Positions 46,568 to 60,638 are shown, numbered from the stretch's first letter. The stretch is DNA of 64,000 nt from a virus (IMGVR_UViG_3300020055_000005:64001-128000), one strand, 5' to 3'. Translations and numbers: made by a program. Notes: generated from the sequence alone by a model not told the origin.

Positions 46568-47008
46568 TTACACTAATGAACCGTAGACTTTGAAAGAACC
46601 GTTGTCTAGTTGTTCATATTTGAATTTTACATCGATGACTTTTTCTTCTTTTTCAATTTCATCGATGGGCGTATCGACTGACTTACCGACGATCTCACCA
46701 AATTGTGAGAATGATACTACCATCTCACCTGACCCTGCGAAGTCTTCTTCTGCGACTTCATTTCTTGGGTCGTCTGAAGGATGTACAACTCTGTTGATAC
46801 CAACTTGTGCAAGTTTAGATTCCACTTGACCTACAGCGGCCTTTGGGTTTAGGAATTCTGATACTGCAGTGTGTCCTAAAATTGCGTTGATTCTTTGTTT
46901 GACATCTTCGTCTGTTACTTCGTAAGGAACTTTCTCAGATGAAAGTCCTGAACCAAAGAAAGTTGATGGTCTGTAAAGTTCTGTTACAAATTCTCTAAAA
47001 TTTTTCAT
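46568..47008 (-). CDS. Probable capsid-internal protein
   Basis: N-terminal MKNFREFVTE resembles the T4 capsid-targeting sequence. Confidence 0.6.
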   Translation of the reverse strand: MKNFREFVTELYRPSTFFGSGLSSEKVPYEVTDEDVKQRINAILGHTAVSEFLNPKAAVGQVESKLAQVGINRVVHPSDDPRNEVAEEDFAGSGEMVVSFSQFGEIVGKSVDTPIDEIEKEEKVIDVKFKYEQLDNGSFKVYGSLV

Positions 47009-47588: not shown

Positions 47589-48170
47589 TTAAATTTTGTT
47601 TGCGACCTTCAAAATTGCGTTGAAAGTCTTTTTGAAAGAATTTTTATCTTTCTGTAATAACTGTATATATTTAGTACGAATGGGAGCCTTAACCTTCATT
47701 AATGTGTCATAAACTTTGACTGCATCATCTCTTTTGACCTTGTTTTTCTTATTGTCATTTGTAGAGATTTCACCATCTTTTGTAAGGTCTTTAAAGTTAC
47801 CCAATTGTACCATTACGTTTTTGTCTGCCCATGCTTGTGACCCACTTGCGTTGTCATCTAGTGCTTGGATAGCTCTTTGGACGACATCGTCATCCTGTGC
47901 TTCGGAGTATTTACCCCCTGCCATATTTGCGATTTTGTCTAGTCTCTTTCTAAGGTCTGCTTCGTTCTTAGATTGTGAAACTGCACGTGCAACTTTCTTG
48001 TTACCTGCATCAGACATCATTCCAAAATCACCGATCTTCTCCATGATCTTGTTGACTTTCTTCGCTTCTACTTTTGCATAACCTAACTTCTTCAATTTCT
48101 CTTTGAAGAGTTTAGTCCTTGCATCTGTGGTAAGTACTTTCTCTAATTGTTTTTCAACACTCTCAGACAT
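47589..48170 (-). CDS. Lys-rich putative internal head protein
   Basis: DARTKLFKE motif; charged composition. Confidence 0.6.
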   Translation of the reverse strand: MSESVEKQLEKVLTTDARTKLFKEKLKKLGYAKVEAKKVNKIMEKIGDFGMMSDAGNKKVARAVSQSKNEADLRKRLDKIANMAGGKYSEAQDDDVVQRAIQALDDNASGSQAWADKNVMVQLGNFKDLTKDGEISTNDNKKNKVKRDDAVKVYDTLMKVKAPIRTKYIQLLQKDKNSFKKTFNAILKVANKI

Positions 48171-49420
48171 TACCTACTTACCTTGTATTTTGTTAACACT
48201 GTTGCCATATCACCCCATGCAAGTGTAGCGTCTTTACCACCACGACTATAGAATGTAAACTTAGTCTTGTTTCTAGGGTCATCCTTTGCAACCATGTTGA
48301 TTTTATCAACATTGTATTTGTTACTGCGAGTAATACTCTTTACGAGTAAATCCATTTTGTGTCCCTTCTTCATTGAAGAATCGAACTCTACTGAAACGGT
48401 ATTACCCTTTTTAATCTTTTCGAATTCCTTTCTAGGGACTGCAATCTCTTGTAAGTCCTGTTCAGGTAATTCCTGTTTAGGTGCATACTTTTGTCCTTGT
48501 TCCCACATCTTTCTGTATGAGTCCATGACTGATTCGTTTTTAGGTTTTTCACCTTTCTCTTTCTTTGCAATTGCTATAGCAGCCTGTTGTGCAGGTGATA
48601 CTGCTTCTTCGACTTCTTCAAACTGAATACCTAATCTCTTTTCGTGTTTCTTCATTAGGTCTTTGACAGTCATGTTTTTGTTTTTTGGATATGCAAAATC
48701 ATCAGCAAGTTCATCATCTGATAGATATTTTAAATCTAACTGTTTGAAAAACTTTTTACCCTCAGGTGAACCTACTTTAGTGCTTGGTTTTATACTCTTG
48801 ACAAGTTTTCGCATTCCTGCAATTGCTTTCTTTTGAACTGAAGGATTGTCATCAAAGATACCAATTGCCATTGTTCCTTCTTCTAGTTCTTCTCTTTTCA
48901 TAGATTTCTCTATGGTCTGTTTAGTTTGAAGTTTACCAATCATTGACAAGATTGTATCTCTTGCTTTAAGAACCTGTTCGTAATCGTAATTGTGTTTTGT
49001 GTTTTTGAGTTCTTTGTCACCCATGTTTGCAATCTTCTGATAAGACACTAAGACCTTTTGCATGTCTTTAGAGACTTTTCTCATTGCATTGATTTCTTTA
49101 TCAGTGACTTCATCAAGTTGTGTTTCTTCTACTTGATTTCTTAGGGATACTGATTTACCCTTTAACAGTGATTGTGCTTTCTTTCTGTCGTGGAACAAGA
49201 AACTGTATGTCTTACCTTTGTCATCTTTTACTTGATAACCTTTTGAAGACATCTTAGTAATCTTTCCGAATCTTTTGTCACCGTTTTTTGGTTCATAGAA
49301 GTCTAACTCTAGACCAACTCTTGCAGAGTTTTTAGTTTCTGTACCCATTCCTTTACGGGCAAGAGTTCTATAGTTCTCTTCTAATCTAGCGGATTCTTTT
49401 AAGGATTGAAAGAGGTTCAT
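48170..49420 (-). CDS. Modular Lys/Glu-rich putative internal head protein
   Basis: Modules separated by LEE/VEE/LQE motifs; AVSPAQQAAIAIAKKE. Confidence 0.65.
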   Translation of the reverse strand: MNLFQSLKESARLEENYRTLARKGMGTETKNSARVGLELDFYEPKNGDKRFGKITKMSSKGYQVKDDKGKTYSFLFHDRKKAQSLLKGKSVSLRNQVEETQLDEVTDKEINAMRKVSKDMQKVLVSYQKIANMGDKELKNTKHNYDYEQVLKARDTILSMIGKLQTKQTIEKSMKREELEEGTMAIGIFDDNPSVQKKAIAGMRKLVKSIKPSTKVGSPEGKKFFKQLDLKYLSDDELADDFAYPKNKNMTVKDLMKKHEKRLGIQFEEVEEAVSPAQQAAIAIAKKEKGEKPKNESVMDSYRKMWEQGQKYAPKQELPEQDLQEIAVPRKEFEKIKKGNTVSVEFDSSMKKGHKMDLLVKSITRSNKYNVDKINMVAKDDPRNKTKFTFYSRGGKDATLAWGDMATVLTKYKVSR

Positions 49421-50873: not shown

Positions 50874-51413
50874 TTACCAAAAAAAGTTTCCACCACCACT
50901 CAAACCTAACTGTTTTGCATAGTATGGAAGTCTACATGCCCAATAGGATGCTGTTGTTTTGTCGTTTGCAGTTGAACATTGATGACGAGCTGCAAATGAT
51001 TTACGTGCCTTTGGGTCATCTATCTTAACTTTTAATCCTGTAGTGTCACCCCATGACACTTTCTTGATGTTTTTTGTTTTGGGGTCTCTGACATAAACAT
51101 AGTATTTCTTAGAACCACCTTTCTTAGGTTTGTTTAATTCAGGTTCTTCCTCTTCTACTATGTTCATCATAGGACAGTCTAGGGGTACCAACTCACCCTC
51201 ATAGACTTCGTAATCACCTAGATCAGTTTCTAGGATGTGTTTGTCGACTTCTGTAAGTCTGTATTTTTGTTCATGAACAAGTCTTTTCACTTCCTTTATA
51301 GTTTCAAAATACATCAATGACCCCAGTCTAAATGGGTTGTCAATGAAGTTAGTTTTAGATTCCTGAAGGTCATTGATGACTTGATCAAGAGCTTGTTCTT
51401 TTAGTGTTTTCAT
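50874..51413 (-). CDS. Conserved hypothetical protein with C-terminal His/Cys motif
   Basis: KKYYVYV, KVSWGD, RKSFAARHQC, YWAC. Confidence 0.75.
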   Translation of the reverse strand: MKTLKEQALDQVINDLQESKTNFIDNPFRLGSLMYFETIKEVKRLVHEQKYRLTEVDKHILETDLGDYEVYEGELVPLDCPMMNIVEEEEPELNKPKKGGSKKYYVYVRDPKTKNIKKVSWGDTTGLKVKIDDPKARKSFAARHQCSTANDKTTASYWACRLPYYAKQLGLSGGGNFFW

Positions 51414-52045
51414 TATGCTAAATCTTGGTCGTGGTTTAGATTACCTTTTTTCTTTTTGACAATAAATGCGTTGACCCTTGCATGTCCCCACTGCTGTGGT
51501 GTAGTGCCTGGTCTATGACCACCTTTCCAAGCTGCGACACCTCTATCATACACTTTCTTTAGTGTTGCAACTGAGATACCACTTTTCTTTGACTTGTCTG
51601 CAAATGAATCTTCTTCAAGTGTCTCTTCGTTTGCAAGTCTGAGTGCATGTTGAACTTTTGGATGATCTCCAAGACCTTTCTTCATCTTTTCAATCTTCTT
51701 ATATGCACCAGTCATGTTACCACTCATTTTCTTTGCGATGTCTTGTGCCTTTTTGATAAGATTAGAGGGGAATGATGCCTCCAAAAGTTCTTCATCAATA
51801 AGACCTTCGATATCATCTAAGTCTTCTTTGATCTCTGTGACTTGGAATTCTTCGTTATAAGGGAAACCTTTGAGAGGATTTTGGAACACTTGACTGAAGT
51901 GTTTCTTTTTATTATTCTTCAGTTCTTTTTGTGCCTCTTCGATATACTCTTCAATAGTTTGCCCAGGCGTATCGTCTTGATATGCATTTCTTATTTCGTC
52001 TGTACCCACTTCGTGTACACCGTTGTCTGTTTTATTACCTGACAT
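51413..52045 (-). CDS. Putative internal head protein
   Basis: KSGIS..TLKKVYDRGVAAW..GHRPGTTPQQWGHARVN module. Confidence 0.7.
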   Translation of the reverse strand: MSGNKTDNGVHEVGTDEIRNAYQDDTPGQTIEEYIEEAQKELKNNKKKHFSQVFQNPLKGFPYNEEFQVTEIKEDLDDIEGLIDEELLEASFPSNLIKKAQDIAKKMSGNMTGAYKKIEKMKKGLGDHPKVQHALRLANEETLEEDSFADKSKKSGISVATLKKVYDRGVAAWKGGHRPGTTPQQWGHARVNAFIVKKKKGNLNHDQDLA

Positions 52046-52452
52046 TATAATTCTCCTACTCTTGATTGAAAGTCTTCCCATGAAGTTGACTCTGCAACTA
52101 TAGACTTTAAATGTGATTCTAAGATGACTGGTTCTCCGTTGTATGATAAAACATTATTCTCTGTTGAGATAGAACCTGATGCAGTGTGAATGGTAGTATC
52201 TGACAAATACATGTCTCGAAATTTATATTCAGCACTACCTAAGTCATATGCATCGTTTGTATCAGGTATCAAATGACCTGTTACTGTTCCTGATAATGTT
52301 ACAGGTAGACCATTTCCACCTGCAGTAGTACCATCAGACACTTTAAGTGTACCTGTTGAAGGGTCATAGAATATTTCACCTTCTTTGGGGTTAAAAGTTG
52401 CAGGGTCTGTTCCACCTAGTTTTTCTGCGACTATTTTATACGTTGTTGCCAT
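52045..52452 (-). CDS. Tail-fibre-like structural fragment
   Basis: GEIFYD...LKVSDGTTAGG, LIPDTN.AYDLGS. Confidence 0.6.
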   Translation of the reverse strand: MATTYKIVAEKLGGTDPATFNPKEGEIFYDPSTGTLKVSDGTTAGGNGLPVTLSGTVTGHLIPDTNDAYDLGSAEYKFRDMYLSDTTIHTASGSISTENNVLSYNGEPVILESHLKSIVAESTSWEDFQSRVGEL

Positions 52453-52454
52453 CT

Positions 52455-53375
52455 TTATTTACCGTCCTTCTTATCCAAATATGCTGCAATCGCCATTTGT
52501 CTTATTTTTTTATCAGACTTTCCCTTAAATTGTGGTGCATCTGATTTCCTAAAATCTTTTACGTAGTCTCCTGCATCTGCATCAGGCCCTAATTCCATCT
52601 TCAAAAAGAGTTTACCTTTCTGTTGCATCTTACTTGATGCTTTTGCACCAATCATTGAACCCAAACGATTCAACATTGCAAGACCCTTTTCGTTATTCTT
52701 TCTATAGAGACTACCGAATTGTTTCTTAAATTCACTAACCATTGCATTTAGAATTGCATCTACATCTGCAACTAGTTTACCTTCCTGTACTTCTTCACTC
52801 ATAACCAGTGTAGATAATTGGTTAACTACTGTCGTTAACATTGGTGAAGGTATTGTGGATAAAACTCTAAGTTGGTCTTTTGTTAGACCTTTAATCTTTT
52901 TTAATTTTTTGAGAACTTTTTCATTTGCCTCTAACTGCACTTCTTTTCTTTGTTTTTCTCTTTCCTTCTCTGCATCTACACTTGCCTTTGCAGTGTCACT
53001 TTGTCTGTCTTGTCTACTCTTGAGTGCTTCAAGTTCTCTTTCGTGTCTTGCTTTGAGTTTTTCCATGTCATCTGCATGTTTCGCTTTTAAATCAGACACT
53101 GCATCTTCACCAAACATCTTCTTATATTGTTTAGTGTATTGTGATGGTTTAGTCTTTGCAGTCTTATCGCCTGGCGCAGGTTTGTACGCAGATGCATCAT
53201 CGTCATCTTTTTTACTATTCTTTGCAAAATGAGCTGCACGATCATCTTTAGTTGACTTTGACATTTCGTCACCGTCAGCATCTTTTGCATAGTATCTTTT
53301 AGGTTGAGAACCTTCTTTGTCCTCAATGTCTTTGTCCTGTGCAGTCTTAATCTTTTCTCTTAATTGATTTAACAT
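52455..53375 (-). CDS. Modular putative internal head protein
   Basis: YKPAPGD..AKTKPS.YTK..KKMFGE and DF.KSDAPQFKGKS...MAIAAYL modules. Confidence 0.65.
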   Translation of the reverse strand: MLNQLREKIKTAQDKDIEDKEGSQPKRYYAKDADGDEMSKSTKDDRAAHFAKNSKKDDDDASAYKPAPGDKTAKTKPSQYTKQYKKMFGEDAVSDLKAKHADDMEKLKARHERELEALKSRQDRQSDTAKASVDAEKEREKQRKEVQLEANEKVLKKLKKIKGLTKDQLRVLSTIPSPMLTTVVNQLSTLVMSEEVQEGKLVADVDAILNAMVSEFKKQFGSLYRKNNEKGLAMLNRLGSMIGAKASSKMQQKGKLFLKMELGPDADAGDYVKDFRKSDAPQFKGKSDKKIRQMAIAAYLDKKDGK

Positions 53376-53381
53376 ACTAAC

Positions 53382-54683
53382 CTACTTCTTTTTTGCATCT
53401 AACTCTGCCTGTTTCCATTCAAGTGCTTTCTTGTTTGCAGGGAATGAACTTGACCATCCCATCATCTTACCATACAATGCATTAACCTTTTTCTTTAAAG
53501 CTGCATGATCATCATCATTTACAATCTCTATAAAGTTTTTACCAAATAACTTTTTAAACCCATTAACGTTCTTTTGTGATGCATTCCAATCTTTCTCTAC
53601 AACTTCCTTTGGAAGTTTTCTTGCACGTTCATCATTTCTTGCCTGTGCAAACTCTAATGAAGTGTTAACGAATACCATTTTGTATTCGTAACCTGCATTG
53701 TCTAATAACTTCTTATAGTTTTTAATCTTGGATGCCTTTGCACCTGTAGTGTCAAATATCATTCCGAGTCTACCTCTGATATACGCACTCATGTTTTTTG
53801 CAGTAATCTCTTTTGCACGTGCTCTGATTGGGTCTCTAAGTTCTGCATCCATGTTTCTCAAGTCAAGACCAAGTCCTGCCTTTTTCAGACCAGTCTCAAA
53901 TGCCTTGTCAGTGTTTACAATCTTCAATCCTAATGCAGTCAATCCTAGTTCACTAACAACTGTTGATTTACCTGAACCAGGCCCACCCATCAAGAACACT
54001 GCCTTGAAGATGCCTGGGTCATACACACCCTCTTGTATTAAGTCTTCTACCATGTATTTTGGTGCAGAGTATAAGTCTTCTGTTAGACCCATTCCCTTAC
54101 GTATTGCTTTATATAATTTCTGTGCATGACGTTTACCAGTAGAAGGAACCCCATCTTTGAATGAGTCGAAGTCACCCTTCTCTGCGAATGCTCTCATTTT
54201 AGATGCACTCATTCCTGATACATCGTCGGCGTCAGGGTCACGATCACCTGCAGATATAACTTGAATCTCATCAAATTTATAGAAACCGTGACGACCTTTC
54301 ACCGAATTATACTTGTTAATGATAGTGTCAAACTCTCTAATTCTATCTGAACCTACGACCATTCTAATCTTAGTGTAACCTTTATCGTGTAAGAATGTTA
54401 GGATTTGAAAAATCTGTTTTACATCTGCATCGACAACATTTACCTTCTTACCAAAGAATGCACGTAAAAATTTAATTTTATCTTTGTGCGATAAAGGATT
54501 CTTAATCTTATCGTTTGAATGTGATGAAAACAATAATGCATCACCATATCCTTTTGCAACTTTGTTTAACTTATCAACTAATTTTTCGTGACCGTTTGTA
54601 GGAGGATTAAATCGACCAAAGGTGAACACTGCACCTTTTCCTTTTGCCTCTGATAACCACGATGTAAATGTTTTATTTGGCAT
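53382..54683 (-). CDS. HxGH nucleotidyltransferase fused to P-loop (zeta/AAA_33-like) kinase
   Basis: FGRFNPPTNGH, VGSDR, SASKMR; then MGGPGSGKS, VNTD, IFDTTG, RN..R.R. Confidence 0.85.
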   Translation of the reverse strand: MPNKTFTSWLSEAKGKGAVFTFGRFNPPTNGHEKLVDKLNKVAKGYGDALLFSSHSNDKIKNPLSHKDKIKFLRAFFGKKVNVVDADVKQIFQILTFLHDKGYTKIRMVVGSDRIREFDTIINKYNSVKGRHGFYKFDEIQVISAGDRDPDADDVSGMSASKMRAFAEKGDFDSFKDGVPSTGKRHAQKLYKAIRKGMGLTEDLYSAPKYMVEDLIQEGVYDPGIFKAVFLMGGPGSGKSTVVSELGLTALGLKIVNTDKAFETGLKKAGLGLDLRNMDAELRDPIRARAKEITAKNMSAYIRGRLGMIFDTTGAKASKIKNYKKLLDNAGYEYKMVFVNTSLEFAQARNDERARKLPKEVVEKDWNASQKNVNGFKKLFGKNFIEIVNDDDHAALKKKVNALYGKMMGWSSSFPANKKALEWKQAELDAKKK

Positions 54684-55041
54684 TTTTCTTAGTCTTCTCC
54701 TGTTCCTTCTTTCTAATCATTGGTAAGAGTTTCTTTGCAAGTTTCTTAATTGCACCTTTTTTCTTGTCTAATTTTTTCTCTAATGCAGCCTTTCCACTCA
54801 TACCCAAATCATTCTTATCTTTATCTTGTAAGAGTTTCTTTGCGACCATTCCACGTGCCTGTTTCTCTGCACGTTTCATAAGTTTCTTAGGGTCAAGAAC
54901 CTTTTTCTTCATCGCCTTTTTACGTTTTGCGAGAATCTTATGTTTGTTCTTTTGGAATGCTTTCTTTTTCTTCAGACGAGTTGCCATTGAGTCTGCTTCT
55001 TGCATCTCATCTAAGTAATTTTTGAAACTTTTTAATTCCAT
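54673..55041 (-). CDS. Extremely basic putative internal protein
   Basis: MELKSFKNYLDE N-terminus followed by K/R-rich body; GATAAATA 5 nt before ATG. Confidence 0.7.
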   Translation of the reverse strand: MELKSFKNYLDEMQEADSMATRLKKKKAFQKNKHKILAKRKKAMKKKVLDPKKLMKRAEKQARGMVAKKLLQDKDKNDLGMSGKAALEKKLDKKKGAIKKLAKKLLPMIRKKEQEKTKKNAK

Positions 55042-55045
55042 TATA

Positions 55046-56254
55046 CTATTTATCCCAATTTTTAGCAGCATTAAAATTATTCTGACTGAATTCCATTCGG
55101 TCTACTAACTTAACTGCCTTACCTTCATGGTCAATTGCAACATATCCTTCAGGATTAACTGCTTTGAATCCTGTTGAGGTCTTAACAAATGTACCTATAC
55201 TTTTAACTTTATTCAAACCATCTACGATTAATTGTTTTGCAACAACCATCAATTCTTGAAACTTGGTTAGTGCTTCGATCATTTTCTTTAATGCACGTAA
55301 CTCATTGTAGAGTTGTTCACCAATCTCTCTCTTAATTGCCTTAGTCTTTTCTTGTTTTACTTTACCAACTACCTTCACTCTCCAATAATTTTCGAAGTGT
55401 TTTAAATAACCGTTGTAGTTTGGTTTGAATTTACCTTGACGTATCTGTGCGTTACAATAGGTTTTATAGGTTGCACCTGGCCCCTTCTTTTCTATTGTTT
55501 GTTGTATTTCTTTGAACTTCTTTAAGTCCTTTCTTTTGATATTGTGGAATTGTTTACCCACTGCAGTCAAATAGTTTGATAGTTTAAGTGTCTCAGTTGC
55601 AGTAAGTGTCGCATTGCCTGATACATCTTTATAGGATGCATCATCCATCCATACGTCTTTAGATGCACCCAGTTTTGATATGTTTGCACCGAATGATGCA
55701 GATAAGTCCTCGATAGTTCCACCTGTATAGGTAGTGTGAAATACAATACCAAGTTTTGCATTAGCGATTTGTTTACCTAGTTCTGATTTTGTTTGAACAC
55801 GATACACTATAGTGTTAGGCCCAAACTGAATATAGGATTCGAAGTCGTCCTTGACCATCTGTTTGTCTTCGTCAGTGAACATTAGATCACCCTGAAGTAT
55901 CTCGTTACCCCATGACAGTCCTGAAAGATACTTAAAACATGTAAGGAACTTCTTTTCTAAGTCTCCTGATATCTCAGATGCATCTTTGATTTCTTGTTCT
56001 GAAGTGTAAAATAAGGGGGTTTGATTGAATAATGATTTCTTTGCAACAAAGAAACGACCATCTTCAGGATGTTTCCCACAAAAGATTGCAGGAGCACCAT
56101 CCCATTTGACTGTCATATTGACACCCTTTTTGGTGTTTCCCTTCATCATGTCACGAAGACCACGAAGGAAGTTTATAGATGCACGCCCACCATCAATACC
56201 ATTGTTGATGATCTCGTCTTCTATGTGTTCTAAATGTAGATTCTTGACTGCCAT
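55046..56254 (-). CDS. Putative ATP-dependent ligase/capping-superfamily nucleotidyltransferase
   Basis: VKWDGA (motif I KxDG), LQGDLM (III), EGYVA (IV), AVKLVDR (V). Confidence 0.55.
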   Translation of the reverse strand: MAVKNLHLEHIEDEIINNGIDGGRASINFLRGLRDMMKGNTKKGVNMTVKWDGAPAIFCGKHPEDGRFFVAKKSLFNQTPLFYTSEQEIKDASEISGDLEKKFLTCFKYLSGLSWGNEILQGDLMFTDEDKQMVKDDFESYIQFGPNTIVYRVQTKSELGKQIANAKLGIVFHTTYTGGTIEDLSASFGANISKLGASKDVWMDDASYKDVSGNATLTATETLKLSNYLTAVGKQFHNIKRKDLKKFKEIQQTIEKKGPGATYKTYCNAQIRQGKFKPNYNGYLKHFENYWRVKVVGKVKQEKTKAIKREIGEQLYNELRALKKMIEALTKFQELMVVAKQLIVDGLNKVKSIGTFVKTSTGFKAVNPEGYVAIDHEGKAVKLVDRMEFSQNNFNAAKNWDK

Positions 56255-56313
56255 AATAGTAGTATATCACAATTTCCTGTGTAATACTACTATTTATGGT
56301 TATTTATTTTTTG

Positions 56314-56682
56314 TTAAGCGCCAGCGTCAACTACACCAGTGTCAATATTGTTCTGAAGATTATCTCTATCAGAAATATATTCGTCTCTTTGTGTGGTCAT
56401 TGCAGTGATTTTTTCAGCAGTAACAGCAGACCAATCAGCACCTTGATTTGCATCATTCCATTCATTCCATGCATTAAAGTTTGCAAGTTCGTCTCCTGTT
56501 GACGATGATGATGCAGAAGGATTTGCAGTTCTCCATGCAGCCCAAAAACCATCACGACCATTTACTGTTGCAGTGTAACCTCTAACTGTGTACTCTTGAT
56601 TTGTACCACTCAACCAAGCGATAACTGTATTAGTGTCATCTATTCTTGTTTGCAGTGATGCTATTTCGTCTACCCATGCCAT
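56314..56682 (-). CDS. Hypothetical late protein
   Basis: SD GGAG; CCTAAATA upstream. Confidence 0.7.
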   Translation of the reverse strand: MAWVDEIASLQTRIDDTNTVIAWLSGTNQEYTVRGYTATVNGRDGFWAAWRTANPSASSSSTGDELANFNAWNEWNDANQGADWSAVTAEKITAMTTQRDEYISDRDNLQNNIDTGVVDAGA

Positions 56683-56718
56683 GGTTTATTCTCCGTGAAA
56701 GTGTTATAACACTACTAT

Positions 56719-56892
56719 TTAGGATTTCTGCAGGTGCGATTGGGATAGTTTATCTTCGATTCGAACAATCTTATTGGATGTTTTGTTAATAAGAACCTTA
56801 TCTCCGTCCTTTTTCGCTTGACGAAGTGCCTTTTTTAACTCAATCTTCTGTTGCAGAAGACCAATAACGTCCTGTGATTTCAATGTTTTCAT
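56719..56892 (-). CDS. 57-aa basic helical protein (not in track)
   Basis: MKTLKSQDVIGLLQQKIELKKALR...; TATAAATA upstream. Confidence 0.65.
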   Translation of the reverse strand: MKTLKSQDVIGLLQQKIELKKALRQAKKDGDKVLINKTSNKIVRIEDKLSQSHLQKS

Positions 56893-56919
56893 ACCTATTA
56901 TATTATTTATATAAAATAA

Positions 56920-57014
56920 TATGGCTTATCAATCTTGGTAGGCTATTCTTTTAACTGACTAACTTAGCTTCTCCCTTATTCGTGTGATCAAGACAACCTT
57001 TGAGAAGTACCATC
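56920..57014 (-). ncRNA. Candidate ~95-nt structured sRNA with its own promoter
   Basis: TTGTCC-17-TATAAT; AUGGU/GCCAU closing stem, CUUCUC/GAGAAG, GCUA/UAGC, possible pseudoknot. Confidence 0.45.
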
Positions 57015-57064
57015 TTTTATTATACTATAAAAAACCCCTCAGGACAAGGGGATTTTGAAAAAAG

Positions 57065-57138
57065 GAGGGTAGGGCAGTAGGGTTTACATACTCCGAGCAT
57101 CCGATTGAGACCCCATATTACTACAGGGTCATACCCTC
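57065..57138 (-). ncRNA. Candidate tRNA-sized RNA downstream of tRNA-Asp
   Basis: 7-bp GAGGGUA/UACCCUC stem, GACCCU/GGGGUC hairpin, 3' U-run. Confidence 0.5.
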
Positions 57139-57143
57139 AAAAT

Positions 57144-57219
57144 TGGCGATTCCAAGGGGACTCGAACCCCTAATACTACCGTGACAGGGTAGCGTGTTAA
57201 CCAATTACACCATGGAACC
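57144..57219 (-). tRNA. tRNA-Asp(GUC)
   Basis: CTACC-CTGTCAC-GGTAG, GTTCGAG, CCA. Confidence 0.95.
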
Positions 57220-57225
57220 GTGTAC

Positions 57226-57306
57226 TTAAACTTTTTTAAGAGATAGTAAACACCAAACTAACAGTGCAACTGTCAATGATAGAAAATACATTGATAGTAA
57301 ACCCAT
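57226..57306 (-). CDS. 26-aa membrane peptide between tRNA-Glu and tRNA-Asp (not in track)
   Basis: SD GAGGAGG; MGLLSMYFLSLTVALLVWCLLSLKKV*. Confidence 0.6.
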   Translation of the reverse strand: MGLLSMYFLSLTVALLVWCLLSLKKV

Positions 57307-57330
57307 TCTATGTTCCTCCTCTATTTAAAG

Positions 57331-57405
57331 TGGTACCCTGTAGGAGAATCGAACTCCTGTTGCATGGATGAAAACCATGTGTCCTAACCACTAGACGAAC
57401 AGGGC
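57331..57405 (-). tRNA. tRNA-Glu(UUC)
   Basis: CATGG-TTTTCAT-CCATG, GTTCGA, CCA. Confidence 0.95.
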
Positions 57406-57407
57406 TT

Positions 57408-57648
57408 AAAAAAAGCGAGGGGGGATTCGCACACATCAATCATGTATAAACTTGTGGATTTTGTGATACTTGAATCCTTGTCCCTTCGCCGAGTCTTTCG
57501 ACCCTAAAAAAGTCGAATCCTCTCGTCATTCAATACTCTTCAGCAGTGTTGAGAGGATTCTAGACCGTAACCTTCGTACTTCACCATCGTCATTAGTTCT
57601 TGTACCCAGTTTACTGGAGAGGTTGACGATTCCTCGGTGTTACTGGTC
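57408..57648 (-). ncRNA. Candidate ~240-nt multi-domain structured RNA
   Basis: Multiple nested stems and a terminal U-run; no credible ORF. Confidence 0.55.
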
Positions 57649-58095
57649 TTAAAAATCTCCTTCTGCAACTTGCACTACAGTGGTTCCTCTTTTTCTCCAC
57701 ATGTCGACAACTTTATTTCTGTCATCAAACACTAAGTCAATAGTACCACCCATTTCTTCAAATGTGTCTGCAAGGTCAGACTTAAACTCTTCATCAGGTC
57801 TGTAGTCACCATCAGGTCTTAAAAATAATCCTTTGTGACCATCCCCAACCCATTCTGAAATCTGTTTTTCAGTAATCTCTCTTTCAGACTCATTTCTTGC
57901 AGAGAAGAATGCAACATGATCTCCCTGTGCAATGAATCTCTTTGCGACATCAACAACCCACTGCATAGGTGTGTCGTTTACAGTTTCTGCTCTGAAAGAC
58001 TTCCAATCTGCAGGTTTCTGTTCCACAAAATGTCTTCTGTGTTCAACGTCAGCGATTGTTCCGTCAATGTCAAAGATTACATTCCTAATTTTCAT
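57649..58095 (-). CDS. HAD 3'-phosphatase (T4 PNK/PseT phosphatase domain), leaderless
   Basis: IFDIDGTIAD, FSAR, LRPDGD.RPD...K, VFDDR..VVDMWR..G...QVA.GDF; TTGACA-18-TATAAT-6nt-ATG. Confidence 0.88.
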   Translation of the reverse strand: MKIRNVIFDIDGTIADVEHRRHFVEQKPADWKSFRAETVNDTPMQWVVDVAKRFIAQGDHVAFFSARNESEREITEKQISEWVGDGHKGLFLRPDGDYRPDEEFKSDLADTFEEMGGTIDLVFDDRNKVVDMWRKRGTTVVQVAEGDF

Positions 58096-58127
58096 ACTAC
58101 TATTATATGAAAAAGTGACCCCCATTG

Positions 58128-58256
58128 TCAAGCAATATTTACTCTTTTTTGGAGAACTTCTATCTCCTTTTTTTGACGATCATTGGGTTCCTTTACCTTT
58201 AGAAGTCTTTCCAAGGCACCCTTTCTTCTGTTTTGTACGTTCTTTTTTCTAATCAT
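58128..58256 (-). CDS. 42-aa basic protein (not in track)
   Basis: [18 protein letters not shown]...; ATGA-coupled to gp41. Confidence 0.55.
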   Translation of the reverse strand: MIRKKNVQNRRKGALERLLKVKEPNDRQKKEIEVLQKRVNIA

Positions 58257-59635
58257 ATTTTAAAGTCCGAAAATTTATCTTTACCCCTATCGAACACTGG
58301 AGTGTCATCATTCTCCACTGCAGATTCAATAAGTTCCTCTTGTGCTTCCTGTTCACAATCATACAACTTCATTCTACTTCTATCAATACCGATTACAAAT
58401 CTCTTGAAAATTGTAGGGTCGTTGTATCTGTTCTTCAATTGTTTCACTACTAACTGATCTAGTTCTTCTAGTTCATCACTGGTAATCAATGCGAACATCA
58501 AATCTGCAGTTGCAGGTAGACCAAATGATTCTGAAGTGTCTTCAAGTCCAATATCAGTTGAACCATAACCACTACGTGTAGTCTGTGTTGCACTCACTAT
58601 TGGTACATCATACTCCACTGCAAGTCCTCTGAGTTCCTCTGCAATACTCTTGACCAAAGTGTAAGAGTTTGCACCTGAACCAGGCCTGATTCTATGTGAT
58701 GCACAAATGTTTAGATAATCAATAAAGATGATATCAGGTTGAAAGTCTTTCTTGATATCTAACTCCTGCATCAAATGTCTGAAGTGACCTACGTGTGCAG
58801 ATGCAGTTGGATATTCTTTGACAATCAGTTTACCTTTAGTCTTCTCTCTGAGTTTCTCAATCTTCTTATCATACAACTTCTTGTTCATGTCAGGAAGTTC
58901 TTTCATAGGAACGTTCATGATGTTTGCATCAATACGTTCTGCGATTCTCTCTTCTGACATTTCAAGTGTAATGTATAATACATTCTTGTTCATCATTAAA
59001 CAGGATGCAGCCTGATGACACATGAACAATGATTTACCAACACCAGTACCTGCAAGAACAATGTTAAGTGTCTTGTTTGGTAGACCACCTTTGGTTATCT
59101 TGTTGAAGTATTCCAAGTCAAATGGAATCTTTTCTTCTTCTGTGTTATAGAATTCAAATCTTGCATCTGCATCTTCTAAGACATCGTGTCCAATGTGAGT
59201 ATCAAAAGACACGGAAAGTGCATCCTTCAATAGTTCAGGTATTTCACCAGTAGACCGTTGTGATGTTTTATCAAGGACGTTGATACTATCCATCACTGCA
59301 ATGTATATTGCACGATCTTTACACCATGATTCAGTTTCAGTTACTAACCAATCCTGTGGTGTTTCTTCTTTGTTCCTTCCGATTTTCTCTACAATAGATT
59401 TTGTGTTCTTGACAACGGAATCGTTCAGATTCGTATTGTTGTCAAGATTAATGAGAAGTGCTTCTGTTGTAGGATTTTTAGTATACTTGTCAAAGTAACT
59501 TCTTACTTCTTCAAATATTACCTTCTCTTCAGGGTCTGTGAAATAGTCTGATCTAATGAAAGGAATACACTTCCGTGCAAACTCTTCACTCTGAATCAGA
59601 TTCTTCAGTATTGTCTGTTCTAGTCGTGTTTCCAT
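58253..59635 (-). CDS. 41: Replicative helicase gp41
   Basis: [40 protein letters not shown]. Confidence 0.97.
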
Positions 59636-60638
59636 ATTTAAAGTAATCTTGTACCACTGTTTCTATTTGTTCCATCACCTCATCAGTGAAGTATTTTTCA
59701 GGGTTGTTATTAATTGTCTTACCAAATTCTGTTTTACCATTTGGTAGTTCAACTCTTGTTGAAGACTTTTTGAAGATACCACTTGCAAGTGCAAGGTCTA
59801 GTAGACCATAGTATCTATCAAGTCCTTTGTCGTATGTCAATCTAACATCTACGACTCTGTTCTCAACAGTCAACCTACTCTTTGCATTCTTACAATGAAT
59901 GATATTACCAATGACTTCCGTTCCTTCTTTCTCTTTCTTCTTTGAAAGATAGACAATGGAAGAGGCTGCATATTTGAGACCTGAACCACCACCCATTTCT
60001 TTCTGAGGGAACATAGAACCAATCACATCATAAGTGTGGTTAGTTACAATCATTGGAACTCCTGCTCGTCCTAGTTTAAGAGTTAAGACTCTGAATGCAC
60101 CTTTTACAATCTGTGCTCTCGTCATGTCTCTTGTCTCTTTACCATCTGCAGTGTCTTCGATTTCTTTGGTTGTTGATAACATACCAAGTGAATCAAGAAC
60201 GAACATCATAGGTGGACGTTTGTCTTCAGGGGTTTCGATATACTTATCAAGAATATTAATGGACTGTGTCCTAAATTCTTGTACGGTTACGACTGGAACA
60301 ATCACCACTCTATTTGCATCAATACCTCTGTCTTCAATCATTTCTTTACTGATTGCAGATTCTGATTCAAAGTAGATTACGGCCGCCTCAGGATGGTCTT
60401 CCAAGAATTGTTTTACCATTCCTAGTGCGAAAAAAGTTTTACCAGTTGCAGATTCACCTGCGATTGCAGTGATCTTGTTCTTGGGTAGTCCACCATAAAG
60501 TGAACCACTGAGTAATGCATTAAAGATGTATGACCCACTATCTATGAATGAATCAACATCACCAGCGGAAACACCATCTGCGACGATGGATGCATATTCG
60601 TTCCCACTCGATTTAACTAAGTCTTTAATAAACGACAT
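59586..60638 (-). CDS. uvsX: RecA-like recombinase UvsX
   Basis: [30 protein letters not shown]. Confidence 0.96.

Follow-up and report, generated by a model that had tools for sequence, protein, structure and literature searches.

A module of ligase-like, nucleotidyltransferase and kinase domains conserved in T4-like phages, with partners that bear capsid-targeting-like leaders

Introduction

In bacteriophage T4, polynucleotide kinase (Pnk), which unites a kinase and a phosphatase, acts together with an RNA ligase to repair tRNAs that have been cleaved in the anticodon. A first-pass annotation proposed a non-canonical relative of this pathway for positions 53382-58095 of a 64,000-nucleotide stretch of viral DNA, here called the window, which comprises bases 64001-128000 of the 151,189-bp uncultured virus record IMGVR_UViG_3300020055_000005 (estimated completeness 83%). 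The core of the locus is the gene for a DUF6267 protein (55046-56254), followed by the genes for a small basic protein and for a fusion of a nucleotidyltransferase (NTase) and a P-loop kinase (53382-54683). The ligase-like, NTase and kinase domains form a module that is conserved across marine and soil T4-like phages, the kinase being fused to the NTase in the clade of this phage, and the DUF6267 protein is predicted to adopt a ligase-type fold.

The second described system that resembles the locus is the capsid cargo of T4. The internal proteins IPII and IPIII begin with the residues MKTYQEFIAE. A review gives the ten N-terminal residues as enough for capsid targeting, residues 4 and 7 serving mainly in targeting and residues 8 and 10 in processing (PMC9026906). 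Leaders of this kind are found on two of the proteins encoded at the locus.

DUF6267 and the covalent nucleotidyltransferases

The DUF6267 protein (P0001, 402 residues) is encoded on the minus strand, which holds almost all genes and every gene of the module region. It matches the Pfam family DUF6267 with an E-value of 3e-97 and the PHROG family 455, which is likewise without an assigned function. Four motifs of covalent nucleotidyltransferases had been read in its sequence at first pass, and all of them are present in the expected order and nearly invariant in 93 relatives. They are KWDG (motif I by sequence and conservation, residues 50-53; 56096-56107), QGD (residues 121-123; 55886-55894), assigned to motif III by position only, EGYV (motif IV, residues 369-372; 55139-55150) and K382, the lysine of motif V (55109-55111). 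In the alignment of 93 diverse members from which all residue conservation was counted, D52, G53, G370 and K382 are kept throughout, K50, D123 and E369 in 92 and Q121 in 91. Since these residues are near-invariant over such diverse relatives, the motifs cannot be put down to chance. The canonical order extends to the intervening elements, QGD lying in a strand and being followed by F144/PNT/Y151, E369-G370 and K382, each kept in at least 90 of the 93. Essentially invariant in the same alignment are also H7, H10, K73, N147, Y151, H173, N268, K340 and R386.

An AlphaFold2 model computed from the family alignment is confident (predicted local distance difference test, pLDDT, 93.4; predicted template-modelling score 0.89) and has a predicted beta-rich core (about residues 40-215 and 350-385) that is split by a helical insert at about 216-349. 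When this model was compared with 48,161 chains by VIA-align, which is independent of Foldseek, RNA ligases came out on top, above the DNA ligases, and the predicted architecture is that of the nucleotidyltransferase domain. The ligase-type identity proposed at first pass is thus borne out at the level of the predicted fold, although the name given to that fold there, ATP-grasp, is wrong for RNA ligases. A Foldseek search of the model against the PDB returned no credible match, and phmmer and the DUF6267 family profile found only low-complexity noise among PDB sequences.

With hhalign, the scores of DUF6267 against T4 Rnl1, Rnl2, gp30 and the Rnl1 family profile were weak (E 0.07-0.7); the family gave nothing usable against T4 Rnl2 and gp30, and against Rnl1, taken as a single sequence or as a 36-sequence profile, just a 20-residue segment of motifs IV and V was aligned. 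Within that segment the two motifs coincide with E227-G228...K240 of T4 Rnl1 at equal spacing. PF09511, the T4 Rnl1 family, is weakly matched by 4 of the 93 members (best E 6e-4); P0001 itself has neither a PF09511 match nor the C-terminal tRNA-specificity domain of Rnl1. Features of a gp30-type DNA ligase are likewise missing from P0001, in which some 20 residues follow motif V, leaving no OB-fold, and which has no PF01068 match. A feature search of the ESM atlas gave a weak lead only, to an RNA_ligase cluster with a score of 0.75. DUF6267 very probably belongs to the fold and superfamily of the ligase-type covalent nucleotidyltransferases. It fits no named ligase family, being without an OB domain, an Rnl1 C-terminal domain and a Pfam match to such a family.

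Two further properties of the family deserve mention. An HxEHxED sequence (residues 7-13) is invariant at the N-terminus, where it starts a long helix (H7 in 91 and H10 in 93 of the 93 members). We know of no counterpart in the RNA ligases described so far; it may be a metal site or a leaving-group site. Weak Pfam matches to SWI2_SNF2 occur in 9 of the 93 members (best E 2e-4), and the one in the relative P0166 (residues 385-509) falls within its DUF6267 domain (244-625).

The family is very abundant in ocean viromes. At E-values up to 0.001 it was matched by 2,491 cluster representatives (50% identity), and matches are present in 458 records of cultured phages, mostly cyanophages (cyanomyophages). 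A full-text literature search found no paper that names DUF6267.

The nucleotidyltransferase-kinase fusion

The product of 53382-54683 (P0002) had been described as a fusion of an HxGH-type NTase and a P-loop kinase beside a very basic protein, and this description stands. Pfam places CTP_transf_like at residues 21-139 and AAA_33/Zeta_toxin at 229-372, and the neighbouring basic open reading frame (ORF, 54673-55071) encodes 34% Lys+Arg. The protein comprises a HIGH-motif NTase domain (54069-54644), with the signatures TNGH and SxxxxR, and a P-loop kinase domain of the AAA_33 type with C-terminal helices (53382-54023). The structural model (pLDDT 81) predicts disorder at residues 1-13 and in the linker that connects the two domains.

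For the whole chain, the best Foldseek match is NadR, in which both folds occur in the matching order (E 4e-7). Taken alone, the kinase domain is closest to a polynucleotide kinase, that of Clostridium thermocellum Pnkp (TM-score 0.71-0.72, root-mean-square deviation 3.3-3.7), and dephospho-CoA and thymidylate kinases score clearly below it (0.52-0.55). Its sequence matches AAA_33 with an E-value of 4.5e-14 and the PHROG polynucleotide kinases with 4e-9; an alignment with T4 Pnk can be trusted over the P-loop only, the stretch from the P-loop through the Asp corresponding to residues 3-35. The best NCBIfam match of the kinase is PSTK, far under its cut-off. Because Pnkp is the best fold and PSTK the best NCBIfam match, the kinase leans to the branch that acts on polynucleotides or tRNA. 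For the NTase domain alone, PPAT is the closest solved fold (TM-score 0.65-0.67). In NCBIfam the NTase reaches 20.3 bits with TIGR01526 (NadR), whose cut-off is 341, and 13-15 bits with the NadD models. Since these scores lie far under the cut-offs, the domain, judged by its sequence, fits no defined family.

Conserved synteny and natural fusions

The neighbourhood of DUF6267 was surveyed in 80 IMG/VR loci whose DUF6267 is 40-75% identical, by scanning them with hidden Markov models built from proteins of the window. NTase and kinase were counted if they lay on the strand of DUF6267 and no more than 3.5 kb downstream of it, in only the 47 loci that had enough sequence. An NTase follows DUF6267 in 40 of these (85%) and a kinase in 18, in 14 of which it shares one ORF with the NTase; gp41 lies upstream of DUF6267 in 39 of 44 loci. 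Natural fusions join the three domains pairwise, as DUF6267-NTase (S-PM2d138 and several metagenomic proteins), NTase-DUF6267, kinase-DUF6267 (AAA_33-DUF6267 in P0166) and NTase-kinase (this phage). The soil phage DLP6 of Stenotrophomonas encodes DUF6267, a small protein and a long 'cytitidyltransferase' in the matching order of the triad. The pairwise fusions and the conserved synteny show that the ligase-like, NTase and kinase domains constitute a real conserved module and argue that they are functionally linked.

Other genes accompany the module less regularly. The very basic protein is small (about 122 residues, 54673-55041; phrog_23027), and homologues were seen in 11 of 33 related loci. 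Translation is likely to begin at the ATG at 55041, 5 nt past the DUF6267 stop, and the end of the gene overlaps the next start codon. Downstream of the fusion, on the same strand, lie a highly charged, repeat-containing protein (52455-53375), which matches the central part of phrog_3041, the long 'cytidyltransferase' family, and a protein corresponding to the C-terminal module of that family (51413-52081), found downstream of the NTase in 23 of 33 related loci. Homologues of both follow in about two thirds of the loci and are sometimes fused to the NTase, which agrees with their matches to later parts of phrog_3041. Among the relatives P0242, P0142 and L007/L008, further combinations are found. 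DUF6267-NTase can be fused to a RimK-type ATP-grasp ligase and a domain resembling Zn-proteases, or it can precede DUF5824; elsewhere an SNase-type nuclease takes the place of the small basic protein.

Upstream of DUF6267, a match to the T4-type late promoter, TATAAATA, is located on the minus (coding) strand at 56904-56911. It lies 12 nt upstream of the first of two small ORFs (56314-56892), of 57 (56719-56892) and 122 residues, which separate it from DUF6267. Homologues of the 57-residue ORF precede DUF6267 among this clade's close relatives, being present in 11 of the 16 loci listed first; for the 122-residue ORF, a protein search matched L017 only, and DNA similarity is present in L012. 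The promoter match is likely to be the start of a late unit that takes in DUF6267 and its partners, and it is this motif that points to late expression of the module.

The wider gene content marks the source virus as a T4-like myophage. UvsX (59586-60638), a gp41-type helicase (58253-59635), a gp21-type prohead protease and seven tRNAs are encoded. The closest cultured relative for the DUF6267 gene is the Methylophilales phage Melnitz (Kyanoviridae), with 49.5% amino-acid identity, and a megablast search of the region against phage records gave zero matches.

Capsid-targeting leaders and virion association

The fusion begins with MPNKTFTSWLSE (54648-54683), a leader that is two residues longer than the family consensus and predicted to be disordered. 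In the fusion family, 40 of 41 members carry a leader; the consensus is MKxFxxFLSE with AK next to it and an invariant Glu12. The N-terminus of the small basic protein is MELKSFKNYLDE. Both proteins have the pattern of an aromatic residue at positions 4 and 7, Leu or Ile at 8 and Glu at 10, so that the two capsid-targeting-like N-termini noticed earlier are indeed T4-like at the key positions. No such leader stands on the ligase-like protein. In this phage DUF6267 begins with MAVKNLHLEH, which lacks the pattern, and an in-frame stop lies 5 codons upstream; its clade as a whole is without a leader and starts with MAVKNL, MGAKNL or similar sequences. In the family at large, 37 of 74 DUF6267 relatives conform to the strict motif, as compared with a background of 0.28%, and many more have variants that differ in one residue. 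The genome encodes a gp21-type protease (PF03420, E 3.5e-39).

In published proteomes, homologues of the NTase were detected in CsCl-purified virions of S-SZBM1 (gene 140), S-SCSM1 (ORF91), S-CBWM1 and S-CREM2 (ORF154), with the caveat, given by the authors, that abundant late proteins may co-purify (PMC9146016, PMC9602691, PMC10665884). Gene 140 of S-SZBM1 adjoins a DUF6267 gene (141), and its product carries the leader MRFRQFIIE; the leaderless DUF6267 of that phage is not in the published list of virion proteins. In the phage studied here, the fusion and the basic protein are thus rather likely to be packaged in the virion, and the basic protein is probably capsid cargo by analogy with the T4 internal proteins. 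As its DUF6267 has no leader, packaging of that protein is doubtful, and would be unlikely or indirect.

Leader-like N-termini are also found further along the minus strand, on highly charged proteins at 46568-47008 (MKNFREFVTE), 48170-49420 (MNLFQSLKE) and 50874-51413 (MKTLKEQALD). The sequences suggest a run of capsid-cargo genes of about 10 kb downstream.

A separate phosphatase and tRNA cassette

On the other side of the late promoter lies a stand-alone 3'-phosphatase of the PNKP-type haloacid dehalogenase (HAD) class (57649-58095; HAD_PNKP, PF25109, E 3.9e-27). It has the sequence DIDGT, shares a C-terminal GDF with T4 Pnk and shows 29% identity to the C-terminal half of that protein (residues 147-301, E 2e-16); a kinase half is missing. 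The ORF as listed (57649-58131) begins at a TTG, which is itself the -35 box of a perfect sigma-70 promoter; the start is therefore likely to be the ATG at 58095. This promoter (58102-58131, minus strand; TTGACA, 18 nt, TATAAT, 12 of 12 positions) ends 6 nt before the ATG, so the phosphatase mRNA would lack a 5' leader or nearly so, or else the promoter would serve mainly the downstream tRNAs. These are tRNA-Glu (UUC; 57331-57405, minus strand), of which a 98.7% identical copy exists in L012, and tRNA-Asp (GUC; 57144-57219, minus strand), both of them confirmed. A hairpin with a U-run that resembles an intrinsic terminator (57035-57051, minus strand) closes the unit.

The phosphatase without its kinase half and both tRNAs are thus present as annotated at first pass, and two of the three structured-RNA candidates proposed there gave z-scores of -2.6 (57408-57648) and -2.2 (57065-57138). 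The third (56920-57047) is unsupported, with a z-score of +1.1, and Rfam identified tRNAs only over the region. Of the 241-nt candidate, the 3' 100 nt (57408-57508, minus strand) are 82% identical to L025:2795-2893, which directly follows gp41 there; as its end is formed by a long GC hairpin and a U-run, this part at least reads as a conserved intrinsic terminator rather than a novel RNA gene. Between the two tRNAs, a 26-codon ORF (57226-57306, minus strand) with a strong AGGAGG site encodes a very hydrophobic peptide (MGLLSMYFLSL...), and the 111 nt around it show no unusual folding (z -0.4).

Synteny separates this unit from the module. The phosphatase is a genuine PNKP-type domain of a kind widespread among the Pnk proteins of phages (2,588 phage records). 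Only one of the 80 related loci (L025) has the phosphatase, and it is absent from all five cultured relatives (Melnitz, S-PM2, Sf-CH11, S-SZBM1 and Syn19). L012, an 86% identical relative, keeps tRNA-Glu and the tRNA-Asp region and has no phosphatase; L025 keeps the phosphatase and has no tRNA. On these grounds the phosphatase and the tRNAs were rejected as parts of the module. They are a separately acquired, sigma-70-driven cassette outside it. The expectation that the genes of the locus would co-occur thus holds for the ligase-like protein, the NTase and the kinase, which synteny and fusions link, and fails for the phosphatase and the variable tRNAs, and a framing as tRNA repair that includes a neighbouring phosphatase, tRNAs and RNAs overreaches. 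A full heal-and-seal set may nevertheless have been assembled in this phage, though not as a conserved design.

The interval that separates the gp41 helicase from the late unit of DUF6267 (56893-58252) is a hotspot of variable cassettes (L002, L003, L006, L010-L015). Depending on the phage, it is occupied by tRNAs, the HAD phosphatase, MazG, a 2OG-Fe(II) oxygenase, a DNA methyltransferase or a 499-residue protein.

Possible functions of the module

The reading favoured here, with a probability of roughly 45%, is a late-expressed ligase, NTase and kinase module that acts on nucleic-acid ends and is in part capsid cargo. DUF6267 would form an adduct of Lys50 with a nucleoside monophosphate and seal breaks with 3'-OH and 5'-phosphate ends, more probably those of RNA than those of DNA. 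The PNK-like kinase would produce the 5'-phosphate end, and the HIGH-motif NTase could supply a nucleotide cofactor or adenylylate the phosphate end. Because they bear leaders of the T4 type, the fusion and the basic protein would probably enter the prohead, undergo cleavage by the gp21-type protease behind the Glu of the leader and then be injected along with the phage genome; DUF6267 of this phage, having lost its leader, would probably be made and used inside the cell. With the phosphatase and tRNA cassette, an end-healing pathway could be complete in this particular phage, and tRNA repair is a plausible role for the module. A bolder version, to which we give little credence, sees an injected or late three-enzyme kit, made up of a new ligase branch, a PNK-like kinase and the HIGH-motif NTase, that undoes RNA cleavage by host defence nucleases at the outset of infection, before phage gene expression, the NTase carrying out a step on nucleic-acid ends as yet undescribed, for example adenylylating the 5'-phosphate or capping it with a cofactor.

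The structural match to NadR, the best for the whole protein and with the domains in like order (E 4e-7), raises the question whether the fusion serves cofactor supply. It could resemble NadR, or PPAT joined to dephospho-CoA kinase, both of which are matched too, and be injected to rebuild NAD+ or CoA depleted by host defences; DUF6267 would then be an NAD+-using ligase or only loosely connected. The weak NCBIfam matches to the NadR NMNAT domain and NadD fit this account, as does the naming of the virion-borne homologues as NMNAT-like by the authors who found them (PMC9602691, PMC10665884), and the HxEHxED helix of DUF6267 could, we infer, bind a leaving group such as NMN. However, the matches to NAD families lie far under the curated cut-offs (20 bits against 341), the kinase superposes better on polynucleotide kinase (TM-score 0.71) than on dephospho-CoA and thymidylate kinases (0.52-0.55), the Pfam family assigned to it is AAA_33 and neither the NadR kinase nor CoaE, a kinase is found directly fused to DUF6267, and no NadV is found in the 151-kb record, all of which makes cofactor supply unlikely.

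Sealing of DNA is somewhat less probable again. DUF6267 would in this case be a phage DNA ligase that replaces T4 gp30, absent from marine T4-like phages, or would seal nicks in the injected or replicating genome; neither this genome nor five relatives have a canonical ligase, and DUF6267 is located beside replication genes. Yet DLP6 encodes DUF6267 together with a gp30-type ligase, and for this reason a simple replacement of gp30 was downgraded. Moreover, RNA ligases rank above DNA ligases in the structural comparison, an OB domain is missing, and a late promoter and leaders on most family members suit a replication enzyme poorly. It is also improbable, to a still greater degree, that no pathway is shared at all and that capsid-cargo or late genes with separate targets merely adjoin one another, DUF6267 being a non-ligase that nucleotidylates, for instance, a protein or a small molecule. 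The many leader-tagged, unrelated modules of the region would agree with such an arrangement, and so would the family members that are fused to RimK and Zn-protease domains or neighboured by SNase; pairwise fusions of exactly these three domains in both orders, the 85% synteny and the conservation of the full set of ligase catalytic residues argue against it.

Significance and comparison with known systems

Once recognised as such, DUF6267 is the only recognisable ligase-type enzyme of these phages, and it could supply a compact new ligase scaffold. The module also gives a testable role to the 'cytidylyltransferase' that has been seen repeatedly in the virions of cyanophages. If part of the kit is injected, the idea developed for the internal proteins and Alt of T4 extends to enzymes of nucleic-acid repair or modification.

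With IPI-III and Alt of T4, the proteins of this locus share a leader of 10-12 residues with aromatics at 4 and 7, Leu or Ile at 8 and Glu at 10, a gp21-type protease, small basic proteins and homologues seen in virions. They differ in that the cargo would consist of enzymes of nucleotides or nucleic acids and not of a DNA-binding anti-restriction protein or an ADP-ribosyltransferase. The fusion resembles NadR, its best whole-chain match, in its two folds and their order; unlike NadR, it scores far under the family cut-offs, has a kinase closer to polynucleotide kinase and lacks a helix-turn-helix domain.

As in repair by T4 Pnk and Rnl1, a PNKP-type phosphatase, a PNK-like kinase and a ligase-like enzyme are all encoded, so that the three activities are possible in principle. 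In contrast to T4 Pnk, kinase and phosphatase reside on separate genes in separate transcription units, the PNK-like kinase lying 3 kb away and being fused to an NTase. In contrast to the T4 pair, the phosphatase is missing in nearly all relatives, and the most conserved partner is the HIGH-motif NTase.

The closest comparison is with the ATP-dependent RNA ligases (Naegleria NgrRnl/Rnl5, the ligase domain of fungal Trl1, Trypanosoma brucei REL1, T4 Rnl2 and T4 Rnl1), with which DUF6267 has in common the predicted NTase fold and the motif order of KxDG, an acidic motif III strand, an aromatic IIIa, EG and Lys. Like Rnl1 and Rnl2 it has no OB domain, and its spacing of motifs IV and V is that of T4 Rnl1. 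It differs from these enzymes in showing at most weak sequence or profile similarity to them and in lacking their known C- or N-terminal substrate-binding domains. Peculiar to DUF6267 are the helical insert, which adds about 130 residues after the IIIa region and before motif IV, the invariant N-terminal HxEHxED helix and, in most members of the family, a capsid-targeting leader.

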